Source of the DNA: Lentisphaeria bacterium
GTDB taxonomy: Bacteria > Verrucomicrobiota > Lentisphaeria > Victivallales > Victivallaceae
Direction of reading: 5' to 3'
Assembly (NCBI GenBank): GCA_017504585.1
Contig: JAFVQX010000190.1
Location: 250 to 64,249, forward strand
DNA length: 64,000 bases
A program made the position numbers and the translations under genes. Shown here one piece after another: positions 12,120 to 45,956 of this stretch (position 1 is its first letter; each line of letters starts with the position of its first letter). The notes under the pieces are model-generated. The model saw nothing but the letters and a program-made list of their open reading frames with translations, was not told where the DNA came from and searched no databases.

Positions 12120-12245
12120 TCATTTGCGTTGAAATCAAACTTGTTAATGCAAAAATAGCTTATAAGGCGGCTTGTAATTTTGCATTTGTCAGGTTATATT
12201 ATCTTGAATTTATTTATATTGATGATATACAACTGGGGATTTTTT

Positions 12246-15883: not shown

Positions 15884-15890
15884 AGTGAAA

Positions 15891-21049: not shown

Positions 21050-23590
21050 TTACTGCATTTTACTGTCAGAATATTTCTGCCACAGGAATTTTTCGTGGTT
21101 GTCCAGCGGTATATTTTTTATTGCTTCGGCTATGGTGTGACTTATTTTCCACTCATCCAGCTTCCGGGCTATGTGCAATCTTAACAAGCCGTCGGAGCGG
21201 CGTACCGGGGCTTCATCACCCTTTAACTTTTCGACCATCTGCCATGCGGGGTCTTGAGCTTTTGCCGCCAGAGCATTGGCGATCTTCTGACGGGCTGCCA
21301 AGTGGGCATCGGCAATTTTTATCAATGCCATAACCGTATGGCCGAAAAACTTTTCGCAATCCCAATTTTCCAGATTTTTCAATAAGAGATCCACAGCTTC
21401 CACGCTGCGCAATTTGCCCAATAGATAGGTCGCGGCGATCCGGCGTGGCGCTGAATACCGCAAATTTTCGTTGAGGCAAGTTGTGTCATTACACTCAACA
21501 AGTTTTATCAGCTCGGGCACTGTTCTGCTGTCGCCCGCCAGAGCCAGAGCCAATGCGGCATTGATTTTTGCCGGGGAATTTTCCCGGGCACTTTGATAAA
21601 GCTCCCACGCCAGAGCAGTTTTATTTTGCTGTTTGATGTTCCAGATCGCCAGCGCGGGATTTTTGCCTGCCAAACCTGCTGCGATCTCCTCGTCGCTTGC
21701 CGAATGCCAGACAGAATTGATGTCGCCACGGGGTATCTTGCTTTGGGCGGAAGCATGGACTCCGGGATTTTCCGGCAACAGGTGTTTGATGCTTGCAAAG
21801 TCGATTTCGTGGGGCAGAAGTTGCCGTTTTTGAGCTTCAAATGCCAGATTGCCCGCCAATTCTCCGGCGGCAGTCATCAAAGCGATCATCCGCAAGGCAC
21901 ACCCCAGATCGTGATCCACGCCTAAATGGCGTGCCGCGGCGATCACGCCATGAAGATTTTCCGGAAAAAGCAAACTCATGGGTACGGGTATGGAAACGCG
22001 GATCTCCCAGCAGGAGGCGGCAATGGTCCAATCCTGATAATCTTCGCTTTCAAAAAAGAGGTCTTGAGCATGGGTATCCAAGTTGGATATCACATGGAAA
22101 AATGCTTCTTTGTGTTCCCCCTTGCCCGCAAAAAAGTCTTGAATGGTGTAGGGTTCAACTGGTTTGATCCGCAAACCTTCCCGCACGCCGGGGTTGTCGG
22201 CAAGCTGTATGCAGAGCCGTTTGGTGCGGAAATCATCCTGCAAATGCAAACTTGTGCTGTAAAGGAAACTTTTGGAGAAATCTTCCAGATCATATTGAGC
22301 CACCCGCCCGGCATCGAAGTTCTGCACATAAAAGAATTTGCCGCCGATCTTGCCCATGCTGTTGGTGTAGCTGTTGAACTCCCCATCGCCGGTTCTTCCG
22401 CAAGTCAGAGGGGCGTTTGCCATGGTGCAAAGCACCGCATCGGCTGTGGAATCTATGAATGTATAAGCCGATACTTTATACAGTTTGCCCGAAGCATTGC
22501 GGTAAGTTACGGCAGTGACCCGGTCGCCGGATTTTTCCACCCCGGCAATGGCAGAACCGTATTCCAAAGTTACTCCGGCATGGCGGGCGGCACTTTCCAG
22601 CTCCAGCTTCAAACTCTCGCTCATGGAGTGATAGCCGGAGTATTTTGCGGAATTATCCTGCAAAACTTTGGCAAGCCCACCTACATCCTGAATGTACGAC
22701 CGGGCTACAAAGCCCCCGGTCCAGACGCCGCCGGGATAGAAGTTTTTTTCGATCGCCAACACCTTTGCACCACGCCGGGCGGCAGTGATAGCGGCGATGA
22801 TTCCGGCAGTGCCCAAGCCGGCAACTACGCAATCAAATCCAACATTTTCCGGGGCAGGAGCCTCGGGGATCCAGGCATATCCATACTTGCCTTGCAGCCC
22901 GGCATCCAACGCTGCTGCAGCATTGTCAAAGCGTGGGAAGTTGAAACGGGAAGCTGACCAGATGATTTGAGCTTCGCTTAACTCATCGGGGCGAGCTGAC
23001 CACAGCTTTTGCAAATTCTGCCGGGCAAGGTCGGGGGTGTCAGCAGAATTGCAAGGCATTTCCAAAGTGTATATCTTCTCTGCCGGAGTGCGGAACAATT
23101 CAAAGCTGCCGTATTTGCCTTCAGCAAGAGCTTTTTCGGAAAAAACTGCGGCGGTAAAGAGCTTTTCAGGACCCTGACTCCGGGCGTCGATCACCTTTTC
23201 CGCTTCAATATTTACTTCGTTGCCGCCCCAGTCGATAAAGGTGTAAACTTTGCCGGATCTGCGGATAAATTCCAGCCCCAGCAGGGGTTGTATCTGGTGT
23301 TTCATGCACCACGCCGCCAGCGTCGGAGCCAGTGCCGCCGGTAAGATACGATCGTTTTCCAGAGCATGACGAAGAGCCAGCTCCTGCCGGAACTCTTCAG
23401 CTCCGGGCGAAGTCAAGGGTTGCGACCAGTTTTTTCCCTGCATAAAACCAAAAGCATGATCGCTGCCGACAGCAATGGAACTTTCCACCACCAGCGAATT
23501 TTTTATTACCGAAGCCAGACCGCAACCGTAAAAGGTCGCTCCCAGAATAAGCGTTTCAACGGAGTAATTTACTTTTACAGCAGCAGTCAT
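21050..23590 (-). CDS. FAD-dependent oxidoreductase (FAD_oxidored-type) with C-terminal HEAT-like repeats
   Basis: The dinucleotide-binding motif is 'DCVVAGLGTAGIIAAITAARRGAKVLAIEK'. The C-terminal ~200 aa is alpha-helical repeat ('ALALALAGDSRTVPELIKL...RIAATYLLGKL'). There is no signal peptide. Confidence 0.7.
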   Translation of the reverse strand: MTAAVKVNYSVETLILGATFYGCGLASVIKNSLVVESSIAVGSDHAFGFMQGKNWSQPLTSPGAEEFRQELALRHALENDRILPAALAPTLAAWCMKHQIQPLLGLEFIRRSGKVYTFIDWGGNEVNIEAEKVIDARSQGPEKLFTAAVFSEKALAEGKYGSFELFRTPAEKIYTLEMPCNSADTPDLARQNLQKLWSARPDELSEAQIIWSASRFNFPRFDNAAAALDAGLQGKYGYAWIPEAPAPENVGFDCVVAGLGTAGIIAAITAARRGAKVLAIEKNFYPGGVWTGGFVARSYIQDVGGLAKVLQDNSAKYSGYHSMSESLKLELESAARHAGVTLEYGSAIAGVEKSGDRVTAVTYRNASGKLYKVSAYTFIDSTADAVLCTMANAPLTCGRTGDGEFNSYTNSMGKIGGKFFYVQNFDAGRVAQYDLEDFSKSFLYSTSLHLQDDFRTKRLCIQLADNPGVREGLRIKPVEPYTIQDFFAGKGEHKEAFFHVISNLDTHAQDLFFESEDYQDWTIAASCWEIRVSIPVPMSLLFPENLHGVIAAARHLGVDHDLGCALRMIALMTAAGELAGNLAFEAQKRQLLPHEIDFASIKHLLPENPGVHASAQSKIPRGDINSVWHSASDEEIAAGLAGKNPALAIWNIKQQNKTALAWELYQSARENSPAKINAALALALAGDSRTVPELIKLVECNDTTCLNENLRYSAPRRIAATYLLGKLRSVEAVDLLLKNLENWDCEKFFGHTVMALIKIADAHLAARQKIANALAAKAQDPAWQMVEKLKGDEAPVRRSDGLLRLHIARKLDEWKISHTIAEAIKNIPLDNHEKFLWQKYSDSKMQ

Positions 23591-23603
23591 TGGTTCATTA
23601 TCC

Positions 23604-24323
23604 TTACATTTCGGGTTTCATTTCGGCGATTTCGGCATCGGTGAGAACTTTGTCAAAGAGTTTGACATCGCTTATAATACCGTTGAAGCCGTATGCCGAA
23701 CCGCGGGGACTGCTGGCGCCGATGGCTGCCCATTGGCGGGTGGATTTGGTCATAACGCCTTGGGCAGAGTTCCGCAAAGTACCGTTGACATAGACTTTGA
23801 CAGTTTCGCCATCGTAGCTGACGGCGACCCGGTAGAAGGTGTTGTCTTTGAGGGTACCCTGTGAATTTTTGGAAGCGATCCTGACCGCTTTTTTGCCGTC
23901 GCCAACACATACCCAGAGAGCTTTCCAGCTTACATAAATACGGAAACCGGGGCCTTTGCCGTGAGAATTGCTCCAGAAAAAGAGCTCGTACTGGCGGCTG
24001 CGGTGCATATTTTCCGGAGTTTTGACCAATGCCGTAAAGGTAAAACCTTTGGCGGGGTCAAATCCGGAAGGCATGTTAAAACAAAGTCCGGCGTAAGTTT
24101 TGATTTTATCGGGGGTGTTGAAGTTAAAGGCTTTGCCGTCAGGGCCATCGACCACCTCAAACTGATTGGCGTTCCAAACGGTCACTTTGTCGATCTTGCC
24201 GGTGGCTTCTCTGACCTTGTTTACATCGCCCTCGTTCAAAGGAAAGCTCAAGTAGGGTTCGGCTCCGCAAAGGGCAAAAGCACTCAAAGCAACAGCGGCA
24301 AAAAGAGTTTTAAAAGTGTTCAT
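23604..24323 (-). CDS. Secreted LamG (concanavalin-A-like lectin/glucanase) domain protein
   Basis: It has a signal peptide and the LamG_3-like ending 'GFNGIISDVKLFDKVLTDAEIAEM'. Confidence 0.75.
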   Translation of the reverse strand: MNTFKTLFAAVALSAFALCGAEPYLSFPLNEGDVNKVREATGKIDKVTVWNANQFEVVDGPDGKAFNFNTPDKIKTYAGLCFNMPSGFDPAKGFTFTALVKTPENMHRSRQYELFFWSNSHGKGPGFRIYVSWKALWVCVGDGKKAVRIASKNSQGTLKDNTFYRVAVSYDGETVKVYVNGTLRNSAQGVMTKSTRQWAAIGASSPRGSAYGFNGIISDVKLFDKVLTDAEIAEMKPEM

Positions 24324-24466
24324 TTTTTATCCTTTTATTAAATTATCTCATTTATGATTATCAATATACCACACAAGTTATGATTTGTCAAAAACGCCCA
24401 AACTATAGCGAGCCTCCGGTGGATACAGCGTGAGGCAATGTCGAGTTTTGCAATGCACTGCCCGAG

Positions 24467-32964: not shown

Positions 32965-33010
32965 GGGTGTTGCAAAACCTCGCAAAAGGTTGCAGCACCC
33001 CTCGTTTTTT
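32965..33010 (+). terminator. Rho-independent terminator after RND operon
   Basis: A GGGTGTTGCAA...TTGCAGCACCC stem is followed by CTCGTTTTTT. Confidence 0.6.
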
Positions 33011-33043: not shown

Positions 33044-33072
33044 TTGACAAACTGCCTTTTATGATGTATAAT
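33044..33072 (+). promoter_or_regulatory. Consensus sigma70-type promoter
   Basis: The element is TTGACA (33044-33049), a 17-nt spacer and TATAAT (33067-33072), about 120 nt upstream of the pseudopilin gene. Confidence 0.65.
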
Positions 33073-33191
33073 TTACATATCTGTTTGCGTTATTTCGCAT
33101 AATATGCATTATGTGAAGTGAAGATACAGTTGTAAGTTTTTTATTTATAAAATATTACAAATATAAAAAAATAAAATCGAATGGGAGTTTT

Positions 33192-33956
33192 ATGAAAAAA
33201 TCAATGATTTTCAGCTCAAGGACTTCACATAATGCATATTATGCGAAGCAACAGAAGTTTACGCTGATCGAACTCTTGGTCGTGATCGCCATTATTGCCA
33301 TTCTGGCGGCCATGCTGCTGCCGGCGCTGTCGGCTGCCCGGGAGCGTGCCCGTACTTCCAACTGTATAAACAACTGCAAGCAGATCGGTTTGGGCGTAAA
33401 TATGTATGCCGACAGTCACAATGATTATGTTCCGCCCCATGCAGTAGCCAATGTTGATTACCCCTCGGTAAAAATCTCATGGGCGGGGCTGATGTGGAAA
33501 GAAGGCTTGATCGACAGCGAAGTGATTTCCTGCCCCAACGCCCCGATTTCGGCGGGGGCTAAATTCAATAATTACCGTATGACCAGCCAGAGCAGCCAAA
33601 CCATTTCTTTTGATATACCTTACGGTATCCACCGTTGGCTTATCCGCAGTACGCTCTATAAGCGCGCCACACCAGCCAATCCGGCGGCAGCAATGCTTTA
33701 TGCCGACAGTGCCAATGGCGGTTCCTCCAAAGGCTACTATGTGGTTGCTGAAAGGTGGAGCGTTGTAGCCAAAAACAACTTCGGCTCTATTGCCTCCCGG
33801 CACGCCGGAGCTGCCAACTTTGTGTATTTTGACGGCCACGCAGAAACCATTATGACCAAATGCAATATCGAACCGGCAAATTATACTGCTGATACCAACC
33901 CCTATAATGATTTGCCCGCATTTGACACTACCGAAGAATTCTGGGGTGCCAAATAA
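33192..33956 (+). CDS. Prepilin-type N-terminal domain protein with H-X9-DG C-terminal motif (DUF1559/HX9DG pseudopilin-like)
   Basis: The N-terminus is '[33 protein letters not shown]'. The C-terminus is '[13 protein letters not shown]', exactly H-X9-DG. Confidence 0.85.
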
Positions 33957-33989
33957 CCTTTTTATGCTGAAACCAAGGAGATTTTTTAT

Positions 33990-34643
33990 ATGAAAAAACA
34001 ATTTTTTACCATTGCCGTATCCGCCCTCGCTCTTACCACGCTTTTTGCCGCTGAACCTACGCTGGATATTACCGGCGACAAAGCACAGGATGTGGTTGTG
34101 GCGGGCAAAACTTATAAATTTGATGGAGCAATCAAAGATGTTGCCGGAGCCAAAGTCATGGCTTTCGGCGAAAAACCCCTTGCGGTGCCCGGCAAAACTT
34201 TAGTGGACGAATCCGGCTCTATTGTTATGGAATACGCCATTGATACCAAAACCTCCAAAAGCGGCGCCCGTCCGCTGGTCTGTCTGCGGTTGGAAGGCAA
34301 CAAGCAGATAGCGTTTTTCACCTTCCACGGCAATCCGGTGATCCAGCTGCGGTTCGGCAATCCGGTTTTTGCCGACAGAAACATCAAACTTACGCCCAAA
34401 AAAATTCACCAGTCGGCAGTTACCTGGGATGGCAAGCAGATCAAGTTCTATTTGGATGGCAAACTTATTTACGAAGCCAAACAGCCGCTGCCGGTCAAGC
34501 CTGCCAACATTGCTCTCTTGACCGTAGGGCCTTTCCGCGATCAGTATTTTATCACGCCCACCTGGGATAACGACTGCTTTATGAAGCGGCTGCGGGTTTA
34601 CAACACTGCTCTTTCGGCAAAAGAAATTGCAGAACTCAAATAA
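33990..34643 (+). CDS. Secreted LamG-like domain protein
   Basis: It has a signal peptide and is clearly alignable to the N-terminal ~220 aa of the next gene ('WDGKQIKFYLDGKLIYEAKQ' vs 'WDGDKIRCYFDGKLIKEAKQ'; 'TPTWDNDCFMKRLRVYNTALSAKEIAEL' vs 'VPAWDNDTFIKSLRLYDRVLSNEEVAKL'). Confidence 0.75.
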   Translation: MKKQFFTIAVSALALTTLFAAEPTLDITGDKAQDVVVAGKTYKFDGAIKDVAGAKVMAFGEKPLAVPGKTLVDESGSIVMEYAIDTKTSKSGARPLVCLRLEGNKQIAFFTFHGNPVIQLRFGNPVFADRNIKLTPKKIHQSAVTWDGKQIKFYLDGKLIYEAKQPLPVKPANIALLTVGPFRDQYFITPTWDNDCFMKRLRVYNTALSAKEIAELK

Positions 34644-34673
34644 GTGATCCAAACATATTTTCCGAGGTTTTCC

Positions 34674-37600
34674 ATGAAGTTATCCAAACTCTTTACTGCC
34701 CTTTTCGTCTTTTTTGCGGCAGTGGCCATGATGGCAAAAGATGCCACGCTTGCCATTGATTTTTCCAGTGATAAATCAATCAAAGTCAACAACCAGACTG
34801 TTGAGTTTACCGGCACTCTCCACGAGATCGACGGCGAAAAACTTATGGCTTACGGCGATAAACCCTGCCAGATACCGGTCAAAGGGCTGGTGGGCAAACA
34901 AGGCACGATGGTTTTGGAGTTTGCTTTTGATAAACCCATGCGTAAAACCAAAAGTGTAGTCCGCACGCTGGCAGTACTCCGGGCCAACGGCAGAGAAGAG
35001 GTGGGGTTTTACTCCTTTGTCAACAACCCCATAGTGCAGTTCCGCTTTGCCAACGGCAGAAAGAATTTTTACGGCGGCACCAAAAAGCTCCCCGGCAGAA
35101 AGCTCCACAAAGCGGCGTTCAGTTGGGATGGCGACAAGATCCGCTGCTATTTTGACGGCAAACTTATCAAAGAAGCCAAACAGGATTTCCCCATTGCAGA
35201 CGGCAAGCTGGAAATTTTGAATATCGGGCCCCTCAAAGACCGCTGGTACCGGGTCCCGGCGTGGGATAACGATACATTCATCAAAAGTTTGCGGCTCTAC
35301 GACCGGGTGCTTTCCAACGAAGAAGTTGCCAAACTTGCCGGGGTGAAAAATAAGCTCATCCATCAGCGTTACCCCAGAGTTATGGCAGTTCCACAGCGGA
35401 ACAGCGAGTTTTCAGGCGGTATATCTTACATGCTTTTGCACCGCTTGAGAAACAGCGAAAAATCATGGGAACTGCCCAAAAACGACGCGGCATTTTCTTA
35501 CGATAAAGATAATCTTTATGTGGATTTTACTACCATTTTCCCCGCTAAAACTTCGGTTTTGAAAGGTCATTCGGCAGCCGATCCCGAATCCGGGGTGTGG
35601 GGCTTTGAATCTTTTGAACTGCACTTGCGCCACAGCGGCAAGCAATACTACTTTGGCGGTACCGCAGCGGGCGGCAAAGCCGATTCGCTGAAAAATGTGC
35701 CCAACTATAACCCCAAGTGGGATTACAGCTCGCATATTTCCATGCAGATAGATGATACATTTCTCTGGCAGGGCAAAGTGGCGATCCCGTGGAAAGCCAT
35801 CGGTTTGAGCAAGGTACCCCAAGAGCTTAAAATGAATTTCTGCCGCAGCTTTTTCAATACAGCTGTTACGGCGGCGACCGACCTTGCCGCCCAGCCGGGC
35901 AAAAGTTACTGGGCTGATGATGAATACTTTTTCACCCTCAAATTCCCCAAAAACGCGCCCTCACTTAAGGTAATCAGCCGGGGCAATCCCTCTTTTGGCA
36001 ACATAGAGCAGGAGTTTGAATTTGTTTCGCCGGTGGATCGCACGGTCAAGTTTTTCATTATTCAGGAAAGCAATTCCGGCTTGCTGACCCCGCAGGCGTT
36101 GGCGGCTCTTACCATCAAGCTCAAAGCCAACGAACCGGTTCGCCAAAAGGTGCAAACGCCTTTGACCATGCTCCACGCCGACCGGCTGGTGTATAAACTT
36201 ACTTCGGCAGACGAAAAAACCGTATTCTTTTCGCAGGATGTACCGCTGAAAATATCGGCTCAATACTTTACGGTAACACCCCTGTATTACGCCGGAAAAA
36301 TCGAACTTGCCGTAAAAACCGCCATCCTCAAAAGCAAATACGGCAACAGTGCCAAGCTGCTCATCACCCTCAAAGATCCTTCCGGCAAAGTGATTTACAA
36401 AAACAGTAAACTTGCCGACCTTGTCAGCATACCCTTTGCTGTTCAAAGTGTTCCCGGCTCCTATCTGCTGGAAATAACCGACGGCAAGGGCGAAGTCATT
36501 TCCGGTCAAACCCTCTATTACCCCGGCATCGGCGAATGGAGCAAACTTGACTTTGATATGACCAGAATAATCCCGCCTTATACCCCCATGACTTACGCTG
36601 AAAATGGCACTTTTACCGCCCAAGTGGTCAACCGGGATTATCGCTGGAACAAAGATGATTTCCTGCCTCAAACCATCACTTCCAGGGGCGAAAATCTCAT
36701 TAAAAGTGCGTCGATCCTGGTCAACGGTCAGGCAATTTCCGGAACGTTTCAGAAAAAATCCGCCTTGCCCCACCGTGCCGAATTTTCCGTTAAGGGCGGC
36801 AATGCCGACTGCCGGATAAATTCCGATGGCTGGCTGGAATTTGACGGCGTTCAGCACAATGTTGTGGAAGTTACGGCGTTGAAAAATATCCGTTCTTTGG
36901 AATTGCAGTTTGTGCTGCCCGCCAGATTTGCCAAATATCTGCACACTTCCGCCAACGGCTGGAGCAACAAGATCACAGCCAAGATCCCCAACGGCAAGTT
37001 TGAATATAAGTTTTATCCGGTGAATTTTATCGGCAACGAAGAGAAAGGTTTGTGTTTCTTTGCCGAAAGCTCCCGCAGCTGGAACGGCAGCGCCAAACCC
37101 TTTATCATTACCAAAAATGACCAAGACGCCGTCTTTACCGTTGTTATTGCCAAAAATCTGCAAGCCGGGGAAATGCTCACTTTCGATTACGGCTTGCTGG
37201 CTTCTCCGGTCAAACCCCAGCACCCCCGCTACCCCCTGAACACCGCCAGCTGGCAGTGGAACGTTACCATGAACCGCCCGGGCAAAACGCCCACAAGCTG
37301 GTGCGGGTATCTGCCCGGCGTAGGGGGGACTCTTGCCGACGCCTTTGCCGATGTGCCGGGCGTGGATAACGATACACTTGTCCGCAAAGTGCAGGAAAAT
37401 GTGGAAATTTTCAAAAAGAATAATGTCAAACCATTTATTTACAACCCCTTCTACACCTCCGACGAATACCCCGAAGTTCAGGCTTTCGGCAACGAGTGGG
37501 AGTGCGTGCCCCGTCAGGTCTGGACGGGCAAACGCAAAAACAAGACCCACACCCTGTTCCTGCTCTGCCCCGCCAGCCGGGGGGCGGATTTCTTCCTCTA

Positions 37601-38552
37601 CCGGGTCAGAGAATTTGCCCGCAAGACCAAGATCCACGGTGTGAACTTTGACTTCGGCATCGTGCCCCATTGCGACAATAATCACCACGGTTGTTACAGC
37701 CGCACGCCGCTTCTGGCATACCGCAACTTCTACCGCAAGCTGGCGATGATCTTAATGGATAACGGGGTGGAAGATTACATTATCCATGTGCATAACACCA
37801 GTTCCGTACAGCTGCCCAGTTATACATTTGTAACTCACTTGCTCAATGGCGAACACATCCGCCAGCAATCCAGTACCCTCATGCACAACGGCAAAGATAT
37901 TCTTGACAGCTACCCGGTGGAGATGTTTGCCTGCGAGTTGAGCAGTCTGCCCTTTGGCATAAACAACGCTGTTTATCAGTCCAATGATAATTTGATGAAG
38001 CAATTCGGCGGCGGCAAGGAAGATGAGGAACTCTACAAATTGCGGATAACCCGGGCATTTTTGAGCGGCACGCTGCTGCACAACACCATAATCTCCCTCA
38101 ACCGCTGTCACCACGGTATCTTTGATAAAATCGTGCGTATCTACGATAAATTCAATGTTCCGGCAGCTGAATTCATCGGCTATTGGAGCGAAAAGGCTCC
38201 CAAAGTGGTGCAAGGTAAAGAGGTGTACGCCAGCGTATACAAACACCCCACGGAAAATAAACTTTTGGCAGTAATTTCCCACATCGGCAATCAGCGGCTG
38301 GATCAGGAAGTAGTGGTCAAATTTGCGCCGGCAGCGCTGGGCATGAAAACTTTCAAAACCGCCAGAGAATTGCTGGAAGCCGACGATCCGGAATATTCCG
38401 AACTTTACAAGTTGCGCAAAGCCAACGATTTGCCTATTGTCAGAATTCAGCTCAAGTGGCAAAACCCCGGCATAAAGCTTTTGGAGTTCAAAAACAACAC
38501 CATAAAACTCAAGCTCCCCGCCCACAGCTTTGCCATAGTGGAACTGCAGTAA
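34674..38552 (+). CDS. Secreted ~1290-aa protein: LamG-like N-domain, CBM9-like domain, large putative glycoside-hydrolase-like C-terminal region
   Basis: It has a signal peptide 'MKLSKLFTALFVFFAAVAMMA' and a LamG-like N-domain. 'FSYDKDNLYVDF...FELHLRH' is CBM9-like. The remainder is unassigned by eye. The start is at ATG 34674. Confidence 0.6.
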   Translation: MKLSKLFTALFVFFAAVAMMAKDATLAIDFSSDKSIKVNNQTVEFTGTLHEIDGEKLMAYGDKPCQIPVKGLVGKQGTMVLEFAFDKPMRKTKSVVRTLAVLRANGREEVGFYSFVNNPIVQFRFANGRKNFYGGTKKLPGRKLHKAAFSWDGDKIRCYFDGKLIKEAKQDFPIADGKLEILNIGPLKDRWYRVPAWDNDTFIKSLRLYDRVLSNEEVAKLAGVKNKLIHQRYPRVMAVPQRNSEFSGGISYMLLHRLRNSEKSWELPKNDAAFSYDKDNLYVDFTTIFPAKTSVLKGHSAADPESGVWGFESFELHLRHSGKQYYFGGTAAGGKADSLKNVPNYNPKWDYSSHISMQIDDTFLWQGKVAIPWKAIGLSKVPQELKMNFCRSFFNTAVTAATDLAAQPGKSYWADDEYFFTLKFPKNAPSLKVISRGNPSFGNIEQEFEFVSPVDRTVKFFIIQESNSGLLTPQALAALTIKLKANEPVRQKVQTPLTMLHADRLVYKLTSADEKTVFFSQDVPLKISAQYFTVTPLYYAGKIELAVKTAILKSKYGNSAKLLITLKDPSGKVIYKNSKLADLVSIPFAVQSVPGSYLLEITDGKGEVISGQTLYYPGIGEWSKLDFDMTRIIPPYTPMTYAENGTFTAQVVNRDYRWNKDDFLPQTITSRGENLIKSASILVNGQAISGTFQKKSALPHRAEFSVKGGNADCRINSDGWLEFDGVQHNVVEVTALKNIRSLELQFVLPARFAKYLHTSANGWSNKITAKIPNGKFEYKFYPVNFIGNEEKGLCFFAESSRSWNGSAKPFIITKNDQDAVFTVVIAKNLQAGEMLTFDYGLLASPVKPQHPRYPLNTASWQWNVTMNRPGKTPTSWCGYLPGVGGTLADAFADVPGVDNDTLVRKVQENVEIFKKNNVKPFIYNPFYTSDEYPEVQAFGNEWECVPRQVWTGKRKNKTHTLFLLCPASRGADFFLYRVREFARKTKIHGVNFDFGIVPHCDNNHHGCYSRTPLLAYRNFYRKLAMILMDNGVEDYIIHVHNTSSVQLPSYTFVTHLLNGEHIRQQSSTLMHNGKDILDSYPVEMFACELSSLPFGINNAVYQSNDNLMKQFGGGKEDEELYKLRITRAFLSGTLLHNTIISLNRCHHGIFDKIVRIYDKFNVPAAEFIGYWSEKAPKVVQGKEVYASVYKHPTENKLLAVISHIGNQRLDQEVVVKFAPAALGMKTFKTARELLEADDPEYSELYKLRKANDLPIVRIQLKWQNPGIKLLEFKNNTIKLKLPAHSFAIVELQ

Positions 38553-38573
38553 CAGAAAATCGCTCCGCATTAT

Positions 38574-38603
38574 CAGGCGGCAGAATGTCAGTTCTGCCGT
38601 CTG
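38574..38603 (+). terminator. Hairpin terminator after the LamG operon
   Basis: CAGGCGGCAGAA-tgtcag-TTCTGCCGTCTG pairs at 11/12 positions. The following T-tract is weak. Confidence 0.5.
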
Positions 38604-38643
38604 ACTGAAAATTTAAATCTTGCACTTTTCTGCTCTTTGGGAC

Positions 38644-38672
38644 TTGACAGGAAGATATAAAGCGTTTATATT
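38644..38672 (+). promoter_or_regulatory. Sigma70-type promoter
   Basis: The element is TTGACA, a 17-nt spacer and TATATT, immediately followed by a LacI-type operator. Confidence 0.6.
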
Positions 38673-38675
38673 ATT

Positions 38676-38695
38676 TTGTTGAAACGATTAAACAA
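38676..38695. promoter_or_regulatory. LacI-family operator-like imperfect palindrome
   Basis: TTGTTGAAACGATTAAACAA is self-complementary at 16/20 positions. It shares the core TGAAACG.TT with the sites at 40071, 41106 and 41135. Confidence 0.6.
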
Positions 38696-38748: not shown

Positions 38749-39981
38749 ATGAAAATTGCCAGCGTGCGAGCGATCATTCCCAGTGAAGTCGGAGATCTTA
38801 TTTCCGGATACGGCCCCAATTTCGGAACTGTTGCCAAGCATGATGAATTGGAAGTAAACGGCTTTTGTCTGGATGACGGCAAAAGCCGGGCTCTTTTTTT
38901 GAGTTTTGATATTCTGGGACTTGACCGGGATGTGGTTCTGGAACTCCGCAGCAGTTGCGCCCAAATTCTGAATTGTCCTGAAAGTGCGGTATTGTTGAGC
39001 TGTACTCACACTCACGGTGGGCCTGCCTATCGCAGTAACGCCGCCCAGGAGCGCAATCATGAACGCACCCGGCAGTTGATCGGGGCAACGGTCGAAGCGG
39101 TGAAAAATATCCGGGCGCAGGACTTTGCGGAAGTTGATGTTTTCAGCTATTCCAACATCTGTTGTGCCAATACCAACCGCCGTTATCTTACGCCCGATAA
39201 TAAATGTTACTTTGTGCCGCATCACATTCAGCTGGAACCGTTGGCAAATGGTGTTTGCGACCCGGAAGTGGGGGTCTTGTTTTTCCGGCCCAAAAATTCG
39301 GATTATGCAGTGGAAGTCTTTGTCAATTACGCGGCTCACCCGCTGGCATCGCATGCCCCGGGGCTGGCGGGGCACTCCATTACCGCAGATTTTCCGGCAG
39401 AGGTACGCAAGTATATACAAAATGCCATCGGCGGACATTGTTCCTATTTTTCCGGAGCCGCCGGCGACCAGTTCCCGGTGGATTCCCAGGTGGGCGAACT
39501 GGGGGTGGAAACTATTGCCAAACCACTTTCGGCCGCGGTGATCAAGGCTTGTATAGATATTCGTGCCAATCTTGAGCGTTACAAGGTGCAAGATCCGGAA
39601 TTACGCTCAAAACTGGTGCCGGTGGAAGGCAAGATCCGCCCCAACGCCGCCAATCGCGTGTGGTGCCGTAATGGCGATAAATACACTATGGAATTGCAGC
39701 TGATTTCCATTGGCAGCGATGTTTGTATGATCGGCGTACCCGGCGAACTTTTGGGCGAAGTTGGCCTGGAAATGAAATGGCACTCGCCGTTCAGACATAC
39801 TTGGATAGCCTATAATTCAACAGATTATGTAAGTTATCTTTGTCATGCCAATGCCATATTTTCCGGCGGTTACGAAGCCAGAATGCAGCAGTTTGAACCC
39901 CGCATCGGGTTGAAACTGGTCAACAGCGCGGTGGATGCGATGTTTGAAATATGTCCGGAAATAAAAACTCCGGAATGGTGA
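38749..39981 (+). CDS. Neutral/alkaline ceramidase-like hydrolase (N-terminal-domain family), cytoplasmic
   Basis: The pattern 'GYG...KHDELEVNGFCLDDG...LFLSFDILGLD...LLSCTHTHGGP' resembles the neutral ceramidase family. There is no signal peptide. Confidence 0.5.
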   Translation: MKIASVRAIIPSEVGDLISGYGPNFGTVAKHDELEVNGFCLDDGKSRALFLSFDILGLDRDVVLELRSSCAQILNCPESAVLLSCTHTHGGPAYRSNAAQERNHERTRQLIGATVEAVKNIRAQDFAEVDVFSYSNICCANTNRRYLTPDNKCYFVPHHIQLEPLANGVCDPEVGVLFFRPKNSDYAVEVFVNYAAHPLASHAPGLAGHSITADFPAEVRKYIQNAIGGHCSYFSGAAGDQFPVDSQVGELGVETIAKPLSAAVIKACIDIRANLERYKVQDPELRSKLVPVEGKIRPNAANRVWCRNGDKYTMELQLISIGSDVCMIGVPGELLGEVGLEMKWHSPFRHTWIAYNSTDYVSYLCHANAIFSGGYEARMQQFEPRIGLKLVNSAVDAMFEICPEIKTPEW

Positions 39982-40027: not shown

Positions 40028-40056
40028 TTGACAAAACAGTTTTTTTGTATTATACT
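40028..40056 (+). promoter_or_regulatory. Sigma70-type promoter of the lacI-family gene
   Basis: The element is TTGACA, a 17-nt spacer and TATACT. Confidence 0.55.
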
Positions 40057-40070
40057 GTAAAAGCGGGGCT

Positions 40071-40085
40071 TTGAAACGATTAAAT
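40071..40085. promoter_or_regulatory. LacI-family operator-like site (autoregulation)
   Basis: TTGAAACGATTAAAT lies just downstream of the -10 element. The TGAAACGATTAAA core is identical to the site at 38676-38695. Confidence 0.55.
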
Positions 40086-40115: not shown

Positions 40116-41081
40116 ATGGTAACCCTTAAAGATGTGGCACGGGAGCTGGGACTTTCCACCGGCACTGTGTCGATGGCACTGAACAATTCACCGCGGATCA
40201 GTGCGGAAACGACTAAACAGGTGCATGCTGCTGTCCGGGCATTGGGGTATACACCCAATAACTTCGGTCGGGGGTTGCGTTCCGGCAAAAGCCGTCTGGT
40301 TGGTTATTTCTCCAATCATCTGGATGCTTCGTTTCTTACCGAGATCTTTCTGGGGGCGGGCGAAAAGCTTGCTGAACGCGAATATGGTATACTTTCCTGC
40401 TGGCCGGCAAAGCGTTCGGCAGGCAATATATCGCACAATTTGGATATGATGCTTTCCAAAAATGTCGATGGTATAATTTTTGTCGGCGGCGACTGGTTGT
40501 CGCTGGGCGGTGAGGCGTTTCAAATGCTGGAAGATCGCAACATACCATTTGTTTTTTGCAGCCGCCATTGTCAGGAATATAATGTACCTTTTATTGTGAC
40601 CGACGACCTGCTGGGCGGCGAAATGGCTGCCAACTGTCTGCTGGAGCACGGTCACCGGGTCATATTGTGCGAATACAACGACTCCATCGAACGGCGGCTA
40701 CGGGGAAATCTGAACGCGATCAACCGTTACAGCGATGCCAAAAGTGTAATGTTTTATCAGGCAGAAGAAGTTCCGGAACTGATAAAAAAGCATCATGCCA
40801 CGGCTGTGCTGACTTTTTCTGACCGGCACGCTTTTGATGTGATGCATGTTTTGCGGCAGGCCGGATACCGTATTCCGGAAGATATATCAATTATCGGCTA
40901 TGATGATATAGAATATGCCGCCCGCCCGGAATTTGACCTGACCACCATACGGCAGCAGCGCAAGAAACTTGGTGAACTGGTAGCAGAATACATCTTGGAT
41001 CGCCTGGATGGCAAAGAGCCGGAAAAAGCACAGCTTCTGCCACCGGAGCTGATAATGCGCGGGTCGGTAAAGGTGATGTAA
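40116..41081 (+). CDS. LacI-family transcriptional regulator
   Basis: The HTH is 'VTLKDVARELGLSTGTVSMALNNSPRISAETTKQVHAAVRALGYTPN', followed by a periplasmic-binding-protein-like sugar-binding fold. Confidence 0.9.
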   Translation: MVTLKDVARELGLSTGTVSMALNNSPRISAETTKQVHAAVRALGYTPNNFGRGLRSGKSRLVGYFSNHLDASFLTEIFLGAGEKLAEREYGILSCWPAKRSAGNISHNLDMMLSKNVDGIIFVGGDWLSLGGEAFQMLEDRNIPFVFCSRHCQEYNVPFIVTDDLLGGEMAANCLLEHGHRVILCEYNDSIERRLRGNLNAINRYSDAKSVMFYQAEEVPELIKKHHATAVLTFSDRHAFDVMHVLRQAGYRIPEDISIIGYDDIEYAARPEFDLTTIRQQRKKLGELVAEYILDRLDGKEPEKAQLLPPELIMRGSVKVM

Positions 41082-41105: not shown

Positions 41106-41119
41106 TTGAAACGTTTCAA
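41106..41119. promoter_or_regulatory. LacI-family operator, perfect 14-bp palindrome
   Basis: TTGAAACGTTTCAA is a perfect palindrome. Confidence 0.7.
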
Positions 41120-41207: not shown

Positions 41208-42047
41208 ATGAACATCAGAAAGAGTTTCACTCTGATCGAGCTATTGGTGGTTATTGCCATCATAGCTATTCTGGCAGCGATGCTGCTGCCGGCTTTGAGT
41301 GCAGCCCGCAGCCGCGCCAAAACCGCCAACTGTGCCAACAACCTCAAGCAGATCGGGCTGGCACAAACTATGTACTCTGCAGATTTCGGAGACTGGATCA
41401 TCACAGCATTTCCCAAGCCGTGGAACAGCGATCAGGCATGGTTCTGTATTTTAAGCGGCAAAACATTTTACGGCACCAAACTCAATGACGGTTACGGTTT
41501 GGATATGACCGGTTCCCAGGCCGCTCCCAGCAAAGTGGACAACTTTCAATGCCCCGGCGAAGCTGTGCCCTACAAACTTAAAACTTCCGGTCATGTGACA
41601 ACGGAGTTTTCTTTTACTCATTACATAACAAACTGTGCGGTTACCGGCAGTTTTTTGGGAGGATCCAGTGACCGTAACTCTGCAAGCCTCGGAGCCAATT
41701 GTACCCAAAGTTACCGTCATTTGAACGGTGTGAGCGATCCCTCGCTGGCGATGTTTGCCGGCGACAGTTATCGTTATAACGCTCTTACCGGTGCACGCCC
41801 GTGTCATTTTGCATTCCGTCACGGTGCCGGAGAAAGCCGTAAATTCGGTGAAAATTACACCAACAACGATGGTATTTCCAAGGGAAGTACCGGTAACTTT
41901 ACCTTTATTGACGGCCACGTGGAAGAGCTGACGCTTGACGAACTTATGAGTCACAAAGATGAAATGGGCCGCTCCGGGCATGACGGAACGGCCAGCGACT
42001 GTCTGCGTTCGGGCATCTGGATAGATAAAGTAACGGCATATCCGTGA
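41208..42047 (+). CDS. Prepilin-type N-terminal domain protein, degenerate H-X9-DG tail (K-X9-DGH)
   Basis: The N-terminus is '[33 protein letters not shown]' and the C-terminus is '[16 protein letters not shown]'. Confidence 0.8.
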
Positions 42048-42080
42048 TAACAAGTTATAAACTTTTAAGGATAAAAAAGT

Positions 42081-45008
42081 ATGAAAAAATTCAATCTCAA
42101 AAGTTGCCTGACTGCCGCAGTATGTTTTACCGCTGCGGTACTTACAGGTTCCAACATCATCCCCAATGGGGATCTGAGCTATAAAATCAACAATGTACCG
42201 GCATTCTGGAGTCTGGGCAAAAAAAATGCAGTTTACAGCGCAACTGCCTGCGAGGGGAAACCGGCATTGGTGCTGACCGACGGCGGTATGGCACGGCAGT
42301 TTGCATCGTTTCGGATCGTGCCCAAAGCCAAATACCGTTTGAGTGCCAAAGTGCGTTTGAGTCAGGGCAATGCCAACGGCAGTGCTGATATTATGGTGGT
42401 CAATCAGAACTGGAAGAGTTCCAGCGGTTTGATGAAAATCAAACCCACTGATAAGTGGCAAACCATCAGCCGGGAGTTTTACGGCTTTACTTCTTCGGAT
42501 AAAACTTACGGTGTAGTGGTTCGAGCCAGAGCCATCCAGGGCAAATTTGAAGTTGCCGACATCAAATTGGAAGCTTTGACCGCCGAAGGCAAAGCCAACA
42601 GCCGTTCGCTGTTTTCCACCCCCGGCAGCCGTGAAAGCCTCAATACCAATGGTGCTTTGGATGCCGACCAAAGCGAGTTTCCTGCTTACTGGGCAACTGA
42701 TGGCGGCGCTGAATTCCTCCGCGGCGGCGGGCCCAACGGCAAAAATGCTTTGCGTTTTGATACAGTAAAAGTCAAAAAAGCCGCTGTCCGTCAGGATCGG
42801 GCAATGATCCTCAATGCCGGAAAACGCTACCGGGTCAGCATGATGGTCAAAGCGGTCAACTTCAAAGCCCGGCGGATGAGCTACACGATCTTTGCCGACA
42901 GCTGGGCAAAAGAAGCCGGTGTGGTCAGAGTGCCGCAAAATTGTGATTGGACTCTGGTGGAAGCGATCGTTTTTGCACCCAAGTGCAAAGCCAATTACGG
43001 CAGCGGTCTGGCAATGCGTGCTGATGCCAGGAGTTCCGGCTATATCGACATAGCTGATTTGCGGATCGAACCGCTGGACGAAGCTGCCGCCAATGGTGCA
43101 TATTCGCTGCTGCGCGGGCTGGAAAAAAACCGTCTGGTGGTTTTGAGCAAACTTGCAGAAATTCCGGTCAATGCTCCGGGTATTTCCGCTCTGTGGTTTG
43201 GCAAACTTGCTGAAAATGCCAAATTGGAATACCGCATAGATAACAAAAACTGGCAGCAGCTTGCACCAGCTGAGTCCGGCAGATACAATATAAAACTTAC
43301 CGGGATCAAACTTGGCAAACACACCTTTGAGTTCCGCTGCGGCGAATTCAAGCGCAAATGGGATTTTACAGTTGTTCCGCCGGTGCCCAAGGTAAAAAGC
43401 AAGCGGCTGAACAATCTGGTGCGTGAACTGGAGCCGCTGCAGCTGAAAGATGGCGAAAGCAGAGAATTTATCAATCCGCGTACCGGATGGGTCTATTTTA
43501 TTTTACCCAACGCCGATGCCACGCTGGAAGTTGCCACTCAAAAACCGGTCCGCAGCGCCGGTCACGCATATCTTACCCGTGGAAAACACAAGATAACACT
43601 CAAAGGAGCTTCCGGCAAAGTCATTATCCGTCTGATCCCGGAAATCTACACCTATCAGCTTGCCGGCGGTCCTTATTTGAAGGTTGCCCCAAAGAATGAT
43701 TACAAGCTTATCAAGAAATATCTGCTGCCTTACATCAACAGTTACGCCCAGCCCGGTAAAGGCAACCTGACCGCCAAAGAATGGGAAATCATCTATTCGA
43801 CCAATCTGCAGCGGCAGCACGGCAACCATATAGCCAAATACCCCACCAGCCAGGCGATGATCGACGGGGTAAACAACAACGAAGGCTTGAATGATCCGGC
43901 TTTTGTGGGTATAACCTTTGACGAATTTCCCGCCGGTGATGTAACTTTGATGGCGCGTTACAACGAAGCACACGATTTTATCAAACGCCCGGAAGGACAT
44001 CGTTTCTTTTACTGCCTGTACGGCAAGCTTGCTGCCGGTGGTATATCAGCAGAGTTTATTTCCAACGCTATCAATTCCGGGCATGGCGACAGCATCATAA
44101 AGTACGAATCCTACTGCCAGCCGGTGCCGACCGAAGAAGCTGCCAGATCTTATATCAGAAACATCATTGTTGAAACCGCCAAATCGCTGGAACGCACCTT
44201 TCCCGGAGCGGTGAAAAATCTCTGTATGTATATGATCAACAGCAATGTGCCGTCAACATTGACCGCGGCGTATCTTACCAATGTGGATTTGAAATACTAT
44301 CTGGATATGCAGTTCAATCTGATCGCCAACGATCCGGCGCTGGAAGGTTTGGCAATGGCGGGCAACTGGGGCAGTAATTACTCTGACAACGAGATGGTGC
44401 GTTGGACAGGCCGGCTTTTCCGGCACTATCTGATCGAAGGCAACACCGAGCCGCTGGCTCCCAGATACGGCTTTACCTACAATGTTAATTTTGTAAAAAA
44501 TGCCGACTTTGAAAAAGGACTCACCGGTTGGCAGGTGGAGGGTACAGTAAAAACCGGTCATACTCCCCTTTATGGCCGAACTATGGAAAAACGCTGGGCG
44601 GCGCCCAATGGGATCGGCGACTACTACGCAATTCTTGAACGCGGCAGCAAGCCCAATGTGATGTCGCAGAAAATGCAAGGGATCAAAAGTGGCAAATATT
44701 ATAAAATACAGTATATTACCAGCGATGCAGAAGATGTGATGCTTACCGGCAAAGGCAAACCCGGCGACCTTTCCATCGATTGCGAAATCGACGGCGCAGA
44801 GTTTGTGCCCAAAGAAACCATGAAATACCGTGCTCATGGCCCGTTCCGCAAGATCGATAAAAACATGTTCAAAGTCAATCTTGATTGCCGGGTGTTCAAG
44901 GCTGTCAAGGATGATCCGGTGATCCGTTTTACCGATAAATCAGTCAAACCCGGGCGTAAAACCGCTCTTAACTACATATATATAACCCCATTTTTTGAGG
45001 AAGAATAA
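42081..45008 (+). CDS. Secreted 975-aa protein with repeated CBM4_9-like carbohydrate-binding modules and a central unassigned (putative hydrolase) region
   Basis: It has a signal peptide. Modules begin 'NIIPNGDLS...FW', 'NTNGALDADQSEFPAYW' and 'VKNADFEKGLTGWQVEG', each with 'KYRLS/RYRVS/YYKIQ' strands typical of CenC-like CBMs. Confidence 0.55.
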   Translation: MKKFNLKSCLTAAVCFTAAVLTGSNIIPNGDLSYKINNVPAFWSLGKKNAVYSATACEGKPALVLTDGGMARQFASFRIVPKAKYRLSAKVRLSQGNANGSADIMVVNQNWKSSSGLMKIKPTDKWQTISREFYGFTSSDKTYGVVVRARAIQGKFEVADIKLEALTAEGKANSRSLFSTPGSRESLNTNGALDADQSEFPAYWATDGGAEFLRGGGPNGKNALRFDTVKVKKAAVRQDRAMILNAGKRYRVSMMVKAVNFKARRMSYTIFADSWAKEAGVVRVPQNCDWTLVEAIVFAPKCKANYGSGLAMRADARSSGYIDIADLRIEPLDEAAANGAYSLLRGLEKNRLVVLSKLAEIPVNAPGISALWFGKLAENAKLEYRIDNKNWQQLAPAESGRYNIKLTGIKLGKHTFEFRCGEFKRKWDFTVVPPVPKVKSKRLNNLVRELEPLQLKDGESREFINPRTGWVYFILPNADATLEVATQKPVRSAGHAYLTRGKHKITLKGASGKVIIRLIPEIYTYQLAGGPYLKVAPKNDYKLIKKYLLPYINSYAQPGKGNLTAKEWEIIYSTNLQRQHGNHIAKYPTSQAMIDGVNNNEGLNDPAFVGITFDEFPAGDVTLMARYNEAHDFIKRPEGHRFFYCLYGKLAAGGISAEFISNAINSGHGDSIIKYESYCQPVPTEEAARSYIRNIIVETAKSLERTFPGAVKNLCMYMINSNVPSTLTAAYLTNVDLKYYLDMQFNLIANDPALEGLAMAGNWGSNYSDNEMVRWTGRLFRHYLIEGNTEPLAPRYGFTYNVNFVKNADFEKGLTGWQVEGTVKTGHTPLYGRTMEKRWAAPNGIGDYYAILERGSKPNVMSQKMQGIKSGKYYKIQYITSDAEDVMLTGKGKPGDLSIDCEIDGAEFVPKETMKYRAHGPFRKIDKNMFKVNLDCRVFKAVKDDPVIRFTDKSVKPGRKTALNYIYITPFFEEE

Positions 45009-45011
45009 AAG

Positions 45012-45956
45012 ATGAAAAGAATTCAAATCAGAGCCACTTTTCTGGACGAAGTCAGTACAGATATCCCCCATCATAACTGGGGGTATGAGGAGTGGGATCA
45101 GGATTTTCAGGCAATGAAAGCTATCGGGATCGATACGGTGGTAATGATCCGCTGCGGTCTGGAAAAGTTCCTTGCCTATCCCTCGGAGCTGTTGATCAAA
45201 GAACGCGGTGCCTACCGCCCCCCGGTGGACTGGGTGGAAATGTTTTTGGAGCTGGCTGGCAAATATGGTATGCGGTTTTTTTTCGGTACCTATGTTGGGC
45301 AGCGTTGGTGGGGCGATAAGCGTATCGACTTTGCCACCGAGTGCGCTTTGGATAAACGCATCGTTGCCGAAGCCTGGGAGCGTTACGGTAATTATCCGGC
45401 ATTTCAAGGCTGGTATTTGAGCAAAGAAATTGCCACCTATCATGCCGAAATCGTAGATGAATTTGTGGAGCTTGGGCAATACTGCAAAAAGATCTCCGGT
45501 AATCTGCCGATACTTATATCGCCCGGAATGCTGGGCCGCAAAGCCTGGTACAATAACGAACCAGAAGCTCACGATCTTGACTTTGAAAAGCATTTGCGCG
45601 ACTGGGATATGATCATGGGCAAGATCTCCGGCACGGTGGATATTGTGGCATTTCAGGATGGTCATCTTATTTATGAAGAATTGCCGCAAGCTTTGCAAAT
45701 CAATAAAGCTCTGGCGGATAAGCACGGCATTGAATGCTGGACAAATTCGGAAAGTTTCGACCGGGATATGCCCTTCCGTTTCCCGCCGATCAAGTGGGAA
45801 AAGCTGCTGCTGAAATTGCGTGCAGCTCAAAGCGTGGGCGTGGAACGGGCGATCACATTCGAGTTTTCGCACTTTATGAGCCCCAATTCCATGTGGCAGT
45901 CGGCACATGGATTATATAAGCGTTATCAGGAATACCTTGCCGGCAAGTTTGACTGA
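45012..45956 (+). CDS. DUF4434-family protein (TIM-barrel glycosidase-like)
   Basis: 'IRATFLDEVSTDIPHHNWGYEEWDQDFQAMKAIGIDTVVMIR' matches my recollection of the DUF4434 N-terminus. It starts 4 nt after the upstream stop. Confidence 0.65.
   Translation: MKRIQIRATFLDEVSTDIPHHNWGYEEWDQDFQAMKAIGIDTVVMIRCGLEKFLAYPSELLIKERGAYRPPVDWVEMFLELAGKYGMRFFFGTYVGQRWWGDKRIDFATECALDKRIVAEAWERYGNYPAFQGWYLSKEIATYHAEIVDEFVELGQYCKKISGNLPILISPGMLGRKAWYNNEPEAHDLDFEKHLRDWDMIMGKISGTVDIVAFQDGHLIYEELPQALQINKALADKHGIECWTNSESFDRDMPFRFPPIKWEKLLLKLRAAQSVGVERAITFEFSHFMSPNSMWQSAHGLYKRYQEYLAGKFD

Follow-up and report, generated by a model that had tools for sequence, protein, structure and literature searches.

Introduction

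The Pul secreton of Klebsiella is the archetypal type II secretion system (T2SS), in which sugar co-induces a large Sec-exported glycan enzyme, pullulanase, together with pseudopilins. Beside the cargo gene lie the genes of the entire machine (pulC-O), five pseudopilins and the peptidase among them, and Gly is present at position −1 of the prepilin signal. The present study concerns two pseudopilin genes, A and F, in a 64,000-nucleotide stretch of a metagenome contig from a gut-type Lentisphaeria bacterium (assembly GCA_017504585.1, contig JAFVQX010000190.1, positions 250 to 64,249 of the forward strand), hereafter called the window. Gene A is followed by the genes of a secreted LamG protein (B) and a large exported enzyme-like protein (C), and gene F by those of an exported protein (G) and a DUF4434 protein (H). 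Like the Pul secreton, the window combines a large Sec-exported glycan enzyme with a pseudopilin, and the FTLIEL...E5...P22 helix is common to both. Unlike Pul, each of these two enzyme operons has one lone pseudopilin with a hypervariable head of 180 amino acids (aa), without Gly(−1) and with no machine genes nearby.

The DUF1559/H-X9-DG family, of which A is a member, has undergone large paralog expansions in the Planctomycetota–Verrucomicrobiota–Chlamydiota (PVC) superphylum, and its function is not established (PMC10632474, PMC2754498). Planctopirus limnophila has 68 DUF1559 paralogs, two copies of which are essential (PMC10632474). Compared with the family in the rest of the PVC superphylum, the Lentisphaerota members are without Gly/Ala(−1) and stand in cassettes of a regulator, a pseudopilin and an exported carbohydrate-active enzyme (CAZyme).

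Other described systems share single features with these cassettes. In Verruconatronum alginivorum (2026), an alginate gene cluster includes one pulG-like pseudopilin gene, which has 67 paralogs; lyase export by a T2SS was suggested, and one pseudopilin was found among the alginate-induced proteins (PMC13274419). That case is a passing remark on one locus of another phylum, with no census and no rule of regulator, pseudopilin and enzyme (PMC13274419). The minor pilin PilC of Streptococcus sanguinis has a ConA-like lectin module that binds glycans and is presented at the filament tip (PMC9934059); the lectin of PilC is fused to the pilin, whereas the window encodes its LamG modules beside the pilin gene in exported proteins of their own (B and the N-terminus of C). 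The polysaccharide utilisation loci (PULs) of Bacteroidota are likewise inducible cassettes of a regulator, a repeated divergent small envelope protein and exported CAZymes. The repeated component is a pilin-class protein here and the SusD fold in the PULs, and, unlike in a Bacteroidota PUL, no SusC-like TonB-dependent transporter or SusD-like domain was found in any window gene scanned. In the crateriform structures of Planctomycetes, dextran binds pili-like fibres whose subunits have not been assigned to genes (PMC5394234). The likeness is that PVC filaments are implicated in polysaccharide capture, although the sampled Planctomycetota DUF1559 genes do not lie beside large exported enzymes. 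Beyond the one remark on V. alginivorum, we found no literature description of the Lentisphaerota cassette of regulator, pseudopilin and exported enzyme, nor any account of its statistics or of how Gly(−1) was lost.

Pairing of pseudopilins with exported enzymes

The pairing of pseudopilin and enzyme is non-random, because the two genes are co-inherited in seven contexts and the pairing is enriched in a census of pseudopilin neighbours. An A-type pseudopilin lies directly upstream of a C-type enzyme in the window and in the loci L002, L004, L007, L091, L092 and L093. Around four homologs of C (83, 64, 48 and 36% identity), the flanking genes all differ, and a pseudopilin gene on the same strand lies directly 5′ of the enzyme gene. 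Those four pseudopilins align with A over the full length at 52, 44, 38 and 38% identity, respectively. The complete trio of pseudopilin, LamG protein and enzyme stands beside a GntR-type regulator in L092 and an AraC-type regulator in L093. In one family at least, the two genes share a long history of joint inheritance.

The census sample comprised 80 loci across the PVC superphylum, obtained from a scan of one-genome-per-species contigs. A gene was counted when the next gene lay on the same strand within 100 nt and encoded a signal-peptide protein of at least 500 aa. In Lentisphaerota, 11/34 pseudopilins were followed by such a gene, compared with 9/359 other genes of the same loci (odds ratio 18.6, p = 4 × 10−8). 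When the window and its orthologs were removed, the counts were 8/29 and 6/272 (p = 6 × 10−6). Among large Lentisphaerota proteins, a signal peptide was present in 13/16 of those behind a pseudopilin and in 21/72 of the rest (p = 3 × 10−4). No large signal-peptide protein was found behind any of the 23 Verrucomicrobiota or 15 Planctomycetota pseudopilins; unlike in Lentisphaerota, the gene downstream of the sampled DUF1559 genes is small in these phyla. An earlier note on the window, made from the DNA sequence alone, had made its idea conditional on pseudopilin-like genes being enriched next to secreted enzymes, and over the 80 loci this was the case in Lentisphaerota but not in Verrucomicrobiota or Planctomycetota.

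Carbohydrate-related domains were found in 8/10 of the downstream proteins scanned, and the other two had no Pfam match. The domains were GH78 rhamnosidase, heparinase II/III-like, DUF4838/GH67N, GH123-like with LamG, CBM9, CBM4_9 and β-helix. Together with the seven A–C contexts and the census enrichment, these CAZyme-type domains bear out the architecture of one private pseudopilin per secreted-CAZyme operon that the earlier note described.

The gene upstream of the pseudopilin very often encodes a sugar regulator. All 10 upstream proteins tested (~360 aa) were of the sugar-regulator type: nine had the sugar-binding domain Peripla_BP_3, with a GntR- or LacI-type helix-turn-helix (HTH) detected in all but one of them, and the tenth had a GntR HTH only. 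A hidden Markov model was built from these ten proteins and applied to the Lentisphaerota sample. It showed that 13 of the 23 regulators were directly followed by a pseudopilin, which corresponds to 13/34 pseudopilins, and that the complete cassette, with a regulator before the pseudopilin and a large protein after it, was present for 8/34 Lentisphaerota pseudopilins. The second unit of the window (LacI, F, G) is exactly this cassette. The expectation that the pseudopilin comes first in its operon holds for A, whereas most cassettes have a GntR/LacI regulator ahead of it on the same strand, which often makes it second.

The pseudopilin cassettes are dense in GCA_036677805.1, a Lentisphaeria metagenome-assembled genome (MAG), with two in 7.5 kb (L090, 1–7483) and three in 12.8 kb (L091, 2938–12580). 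Each of them has a different regulator and enzyme, the latter being GH123_cat with a melibiase-like protein, or LamG/GH123_N. The regulators are of the GntR type in L090, and L091 has a 347-aa upstream protein without a Pfam match and a divergent AraC gene.

A metagenome scan with G returned a single locus, L088 (2016–6439), in which an ortholog of G with 56% identity is found and the order LacI, pseudopilin, enzyme is kept. The pseudopilin of L088 has an exact H-X9-DG motif and a globular domain that is unrelated to that of F. Operon position is conserved more strongly than head sequence, and the heads evolve very fast or can be swapped. Exposed pilin domains typically evolve fast.

A different arrangement was observed at 21050–24391 on the minus strand of the window. 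This operon encodes a LamG protein of 239 aa, which is secreted, and an FAD-oxidoreductase-like protein of 846 aa, has its own near-consensus promoter at 24391–24363, and adjoins the gene of a 960-aa F5/8 type C protein. It contains no pseudopilin; therefore, not every exported glycan-related operon has one.

Sequence and fold of the pseudopilins A and F

Two prepilin motifs were found in the whole window, those of A (33192–33956, plus strand, 254 aa) and F (41208–42047, plus strand, 279 aa). Both proteins matched PF07963 N_methyl (A 31.6, F 30.8, cut-off 21.2) and PF07596 DUF1559 (A 45.5, F 27.3, cut-off 23.3), the PF07596 alignment being confined to the initial ~50 (A) or ~30 (F) of the 268 profile positions. 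A also matched TIGR02532 (21.7, cut-off 16.3) and TIGR04294 H-X9-DG (23.4, cut-off 19), with the motif H204-X9-D214-G215 followed by H216. F had no TIGR04294 match and has H-X29-DG in place of H-X9-DG. Both missed the cut-off of 88.85 of the GspG equivalog model TIGR01710 (A 29.1 bits, F 34.2 bits), to which the N-terminal helix alone aligned. Judged by these models, A is a DUF1559/H-X9-DG member and not a GspG equivalog, and it lacks one of the features that define class III signal peptides. That the first gene encodes a prepilin-type protein with an exact H-X9-DG tail, and not an enzyme, had been predicted correctly. The prediction of a prepilin-type signal was right as to the N-terminal motif models and the helix, but the canonical Gly at −1 is missing.

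The protein A consists of a 22-aa basic leader ending in Lys(−1), a 24-residue helix, a divergent globular domain with C58/C114, and the H-X9-DG tail. Its first 24 mature residues (the FTLIEL... helix with Phe+1, Glu+5 and Pro+22) are invariant in 89 homologs, and the hydrophobic α1N is ~22 residues long. F carries the same invariant helix; A and F are alignable over ~60 N-terminal residues only, and their globular domains are unrelated. The third codon positions in the 24-residue stretch differ among A, F and the orthologs, and gene conversion was rejected on this ground as the source of the invariant helix. Because the protein sequence is constant while the synonymous sites diverge, the comparison points to selection at the protein level, as would be expected for a shared machine and filament core. 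In L004 (8874–9210), the same open reading frame (ORF) holds a decayed second leader and FTLIELL start 5′ of the real pseudopilin start, which may be a trace left by recombination in the conserved 5′ part of pseudopilin genes. The ENA contig ERZ27256852 k141_1877435 carries gene A in an identical copy.

The conserved head residues in the homologs of A are C58, C114, D172, H204, N209 and D214-G215-H216. C58 and C114 probably form a disulfide. Calcium staples the C-terminal hairpins in GspG, and by analogy we suspect that the H...DGH residues of A are a putative metal site with this role. The AlphaFold2 (AF2) model of A (mean predicted local distance difference test score, pLDDT, 90.5) showed a 51-residue helix (25–75), followed by a β-rich head with seven strands. 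The Foldseek matches of this model to solved pilins in the PDB span α1 alone. The family profile likewise matched assembled type IV pilins and GspG (5wda) among the PDB sequences over α1 alone, with E values down to 1 × 10−16. The search with the head of A alone (residues 76–254) returned 46 representative clusters among 1.84 billion, all pseudopilin-sized, compared with more than 7000 matches for full-length A.

Known prepilin peptidases need Gly(−1), and Ala is partly tolerated. The residue at −1, directly before FTLIELL, is Lys in A (33255–33260) and Ser in F (41223–41228). In the genome sample (loci L008–L087), Gly was found in 2/35 Lentisphaerota family members and Ala in 0/35, with Ser, Lys, Arg, Leu, Thr and others instead. 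In the same family, Gly or Ala occupies this position in 15/15 Planctomycetota and 23/25 Verrucomicrobiota members (38/40 together). The 120 closest metagenomic homologs of A include 13 with Gly and nine with Ala.

Organisation of the two gene units

A sigma-70-type promoter, TTGACA-17-TATAAT, is located at 33044–33072 on the plus strand, ~120 nt before the start codon of A, and matches the consensus at 12/12 positions. In the whole window, five promoter-like sites with at most one mismatch were observed against 0.23 expected, and four of the five lie just 5′ of genes in the correct orientation; this organism therefore seems to make actual use of the consensus. Just upstream, a hairpin with a U-run at 32965–33010 on the plus strand (fold −21.2 kcal/mol, z = −3.9, 0/200 shuffles equally stable) is the intrinsic terminator of the upstream resistance-nodulation-division (RND) efflux operon and isolates the A-B-C unit. 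The intergenic gaps are 33 nt (A/B) and 30 nt (B/C). The hairpin after C, at 38573–38604 on the plus strand, has 13–14 bp, with an inverted repeat of 13 nt that is 92% complementary (fold z = −3.8), and is likely the 3′ end of the A-B-C transcript. It has no T-run and was hence missed by the terminator scan. The perfect promoter, the three tightly packed genes with these same gaps and the closing hairpin, the latter without a T-run, were thus recovered as the earlier note had given them.

B (33990–34643, plus strand, 217 aa) is a secreted stand-alone LamG (ConA-like) protein, and C (34674–38552, plus strand, 1292 aa) is an exported enzyme-like protein. Both have a Sec-type signal peptide and a LamG_3 domain, in agreement with the annotation of the second gene as a secreted LamG protein. 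Along its whole length, B is 38% identical to residues 5–221 of C (34674–35340), signal peptide included, and is a free-standing paralog of the N-terminal LamG of C. Orthologs of B were found in 16 protein clusters and in the A-B-C trios of L092 (2459–3115) and L093 (7001–7654). No B gene is present in L002, the locus with 83% identity, or in L004, L007 and L091.

The start of C at 34674 is an ATG that is also used by the public gene call. The domains of C are, in order, the signal peptide, the N-terminal LamG, β-sandwich repeats and a GH123-like C-terminal part. PF19543 GH123_N matched weakly, though above the cut-off (46.9 bits, cut-off 22), on a short stretch (residues 1153–1228), there was no match to PF13320 GH123_cat, and the Pfam scan detected no CBM9-like domain. 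From the prediction of a ~1290-aa LamG/CBM9-like enzyme, the size and the LamG were retained, GH123_N was found, and the CBM9 was dropped. A phmmer search of C against the PDB sequences gave no match. The AF2 model of C residues 230–1292 had a pLDDT of 63.5, with the catalytic region disordered; its Foldseek matches to GH2 β-galactosidases (TM score ~0.15, root-mean-square deviation ~27 Å) were discarded as products of a poor model. The named homologs of C all come from Lentisphaeria MAGs.

The second cassette starts beyond gene D. Gene D (38749–39981, 410 aa) has its own promoter at 38644–38672 and encodes a protein without a signal peptide that matches nothing in Pfam or NCBIfam. The cassette itself begins with the gene of the LacI-family regulator (40116–41081, plus strand, 321 aa, PF00356 and PF13377), with a promoter at 40028–40056. 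It is followed by F and by G (42081–45008, plus strand), an exported 975-aa protein in which a signal peptide and an N-terminal CBM_4_9 domain were found. H (45012–45956, plus strand) encodes a DUF4434 protein (PF14488, E = 1.4 × 10−67), which is glycosidase-like and has no signal peptide. A pair of pseudopilin and DUF4434 genes is also present in L002. The layout of the A operon had been said to recur at 41208–45956, and it does so with the pseudopilin F, the CBM_4_9 enzyme G and the DUF4434 protein H, but without an exact H-X9-DG in F.

A pattern search with the LacI-type operator TTGAAACGxTTxAA gave four matches in the window against 0.57 expected. Three of these candidate operators lie just downstream of promoter-like sites: TTGAAACGATTAAA at 38679–38692, just after the promoter of D; a site at 40071–40084, 5′ of the lacI-family gene; and the perfect palindrome TTGAAACGTTTCAA at 41106–41119, before F. 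The site at 40071–40084 is consistent with autoregulation of the lacI-family gene. The same search found no candidate operator upstream of A. With candidate operators before D, lacI and F and none before A, the pattern suggests that D, lacI and F-G-H may form one regulon and that A-B-C would be controlled separately.

The window opens on the minus strand (41–2810) with genes for a YhcG-type PDDEXK nuclease and an Abi_2 (abortive-infection-like) protein.

Possible function of the pseudopilins

Family membership, operon anatomy, co-inheritance with the enzyme, and the associations with large exported proteins and sugar regulators were observed directly. From them we tentatively propose, as the best of the explanations considered and with slightly less than even confidence, that A and F are minor subunits, each private to its operon, that serve a common type IV filament or T2SS-like machine and are coupled to the export or display of the adjacent enzyme. 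The proposal supposes that the pseudopilins would be processed, would polymerise, would use the shared machine and would touch the enzyme physically.

The proposed mechanism starts from a Lentisphaerota mini-operon in which a GntR/LacI sugar sensor is followed by a single pseudopilin and then by a single large Sec-exported CAZyme. The cognate sugar would lift repression, and pseudopilin and enzyme would be made together. The pseudopilin would enter the inner membrane via the invariant α1 helix and would be incorporated by a shared assembly machine encoded elsewhere, similar to that of type II secretion or of a type IV pilus. The variable head would couple the filament to the co-expressed enzyme, either pushing the enzyme out or holding it at the filament. 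The suspected contact is the N-terminal ConA-like/CBM domain of the enzyme (C, G, and the enzymes of L058, L087 and L033) and its free copy B.

One candidate outer-membrane channel of this machine is encoded at 14126–17318 on the minus strand, where two divergent genes with secretin domains, arranged in tandem (606 and 475 aa), score above the PF00263 cut-off. They occupy 14126–15946 and 15891–17318 and overlap by 56 nt. Both are below every NCBIfam secretin subfamily cut-off (GspD, PilQ, MshL, SctC). The tandem secretins, which the earlier note had also listed, are a possible channel of the shared machine. A gene of a BamD/YfiO-like tetratricopeptide repeat (TPR) protein is located near them at 12180–13319, and no other secretion or pilus genes were found around.

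Several results weigh against the proposed coupling to a shared machine. As the earlier note had stated for the neighbourhood of both pseudopilins, there is no GspE/F/PilB/C-like gene, and none of the PilD type either, in the window (~45 ORFs compared with Pfam and scanned for Walker motifs). No secretion-ATPase Walker motif was found in any sampled Lentisphaerota locus; a scan for T2SS/type IV pilus (T4P) ATPase Walker motifs in 1.2 Mb of loci gave matches only in an Omnitrophota locus. The canonical Gly/Ala(−1) is lost phylum-wide in Lentisphaerota, including A and F. The globular head of A has no structural relative among the solved pilins in the PDB by Foldseek and profile search. A Rosetta-stone search with a chimeric query of the A helix and the B LamG returned no pilin-LamG fusion, only stand-alone LamG proteins or pseudopilins. 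The ortholog of G in L088 follows a pseudopilin with a head unrelated to F, so a strict match of head to cargo is not general. Finally, the census is built on crude ORF calling and a heuristic signal-peptide rule, with only 34 Lentisphaerota genes.

Alternatively, the pseudopilins may bind substrate within, or at the tip of, a retractile pilus or pseudopilus, catching the polysaccharide that their neighbouring enzyme breaks down and bringing it to the surface or into the periplasm. In function such a filament would resemble SusD and the DNA-binding pseudopili of competence. The evidence of shared operon, regulator and co-inheritance applies equally to such a filament, and hypervariable heads on a constant stalk (46 clusters for the head against more than 7000 matches at full length) would suit many ligands. 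Precedents are the lectin module of S. sanguinis PilC (PMC9934059) and the dextran-binding fibres of Planctomycetes (PMC5394234). Against this, no similarity of the head to a carbohydrate-binding fold was detected, the lectin-like domains belong to B, C and G and not to the pseudopilin, and one enzyme family (G) is paired with unrelated heads. The association is moreover specific to immediately adjacent signal-peptide proteins, which coupling to export fits at least as well. We consider capture of glycans by the filament rather unlikely.

The residue at −1 leaves two options: either the Lentisphaerota peptidase no longer reads this position, or the proteins stay uncleaved. If they stayed uncleaved, A and F would be bitopic inner-membrane proteins whose periplasmic head serves as chaperone, tether or sensor partner of the co-expressed exported enzyme. 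Such an anchor would explain why −1 is Lys, Arg, Ser, His, Leu or another residue in ~90% of the Lentisphaerota members and why no assembly genes are linked, and the very short MKKx leaders resemble simple positive-inside anchors. A plain anchor, however, would need no invariant 24-residue helix with a membrane-embedded Glu+5 and Pro+22, kept in hundreds of paralogs whose synonymous sites diverge. In T4P and T2SS structures, these two residues make subunit–subunit and subunit–machine contacts in assembled filaments. We lean towards a relaxed prepilin peptidase over absent cleavage, since an invariant Glu+5 and Pro+22 speak for assembly into filaments. The sister phyla keep Gly/Ala(−1) in the same family, which makes a peptidase of relaxed specificity the simpler change, and the uncleaved anchor appears improbable.

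That there is no functional link at all, the adjacency arising from DUF1559 gene density or cassette duplication, is very improbable: the family is indeed very large (more than 7000 matches; 68 paralogs in P. limnophila, PMC10632474; 67 in Verruconatronum, PMC13274419) and the head before the G ortholog is wholly different, but the odds ratios are 10–19 relative to other genes of the same loci, the orientation is strongly biased with the pseudopilin upstream, the pair is kept across seven unrelated flanking contexts, and a pulG-like gene lies in the Verrucomicrobium alginate cluster, with one pseudopilin among the alginate-induced genes (PMC13274419).

Implications for Lentisphaerota and the PVC superphylum

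The coupling of operon-private pseudopilins to a shared machine can be extended to a wider, rather doubtful speculation, in which Lentisphaerota would run a pilin-based counterpart of the polysaccharide utilisation loci. Each sugar regulator would induce one exported enzyme and its own interchangeable subunit of a common filament or secretion machine. The hundreds of DUF1559/H-X9-DG paralogs would then be substrate- or cargo-specific heads on one filament, and the peptidase would no longer need Gly(−1). The family could also supply the glycan-binding fibres of other PVC bacteria.

DUF1559/H-X9-DG is among the largest paralog families of the PVC superphylum, with tens to hundreds of copies per genome. 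The Lentisphaerota cassettes, in which a single pseudopilin is paired with a single exported enzyme under sugar control, make the family accessible to experiment. Were the coupling borne out, it would account for the export or display of large CAZymes by these gut and sediment glycan degraders, which have no SusC/D. It would also represent a new way to diversify the type IV filament machine, with a prepilin signal that does not obey the Gly(−1) rule.

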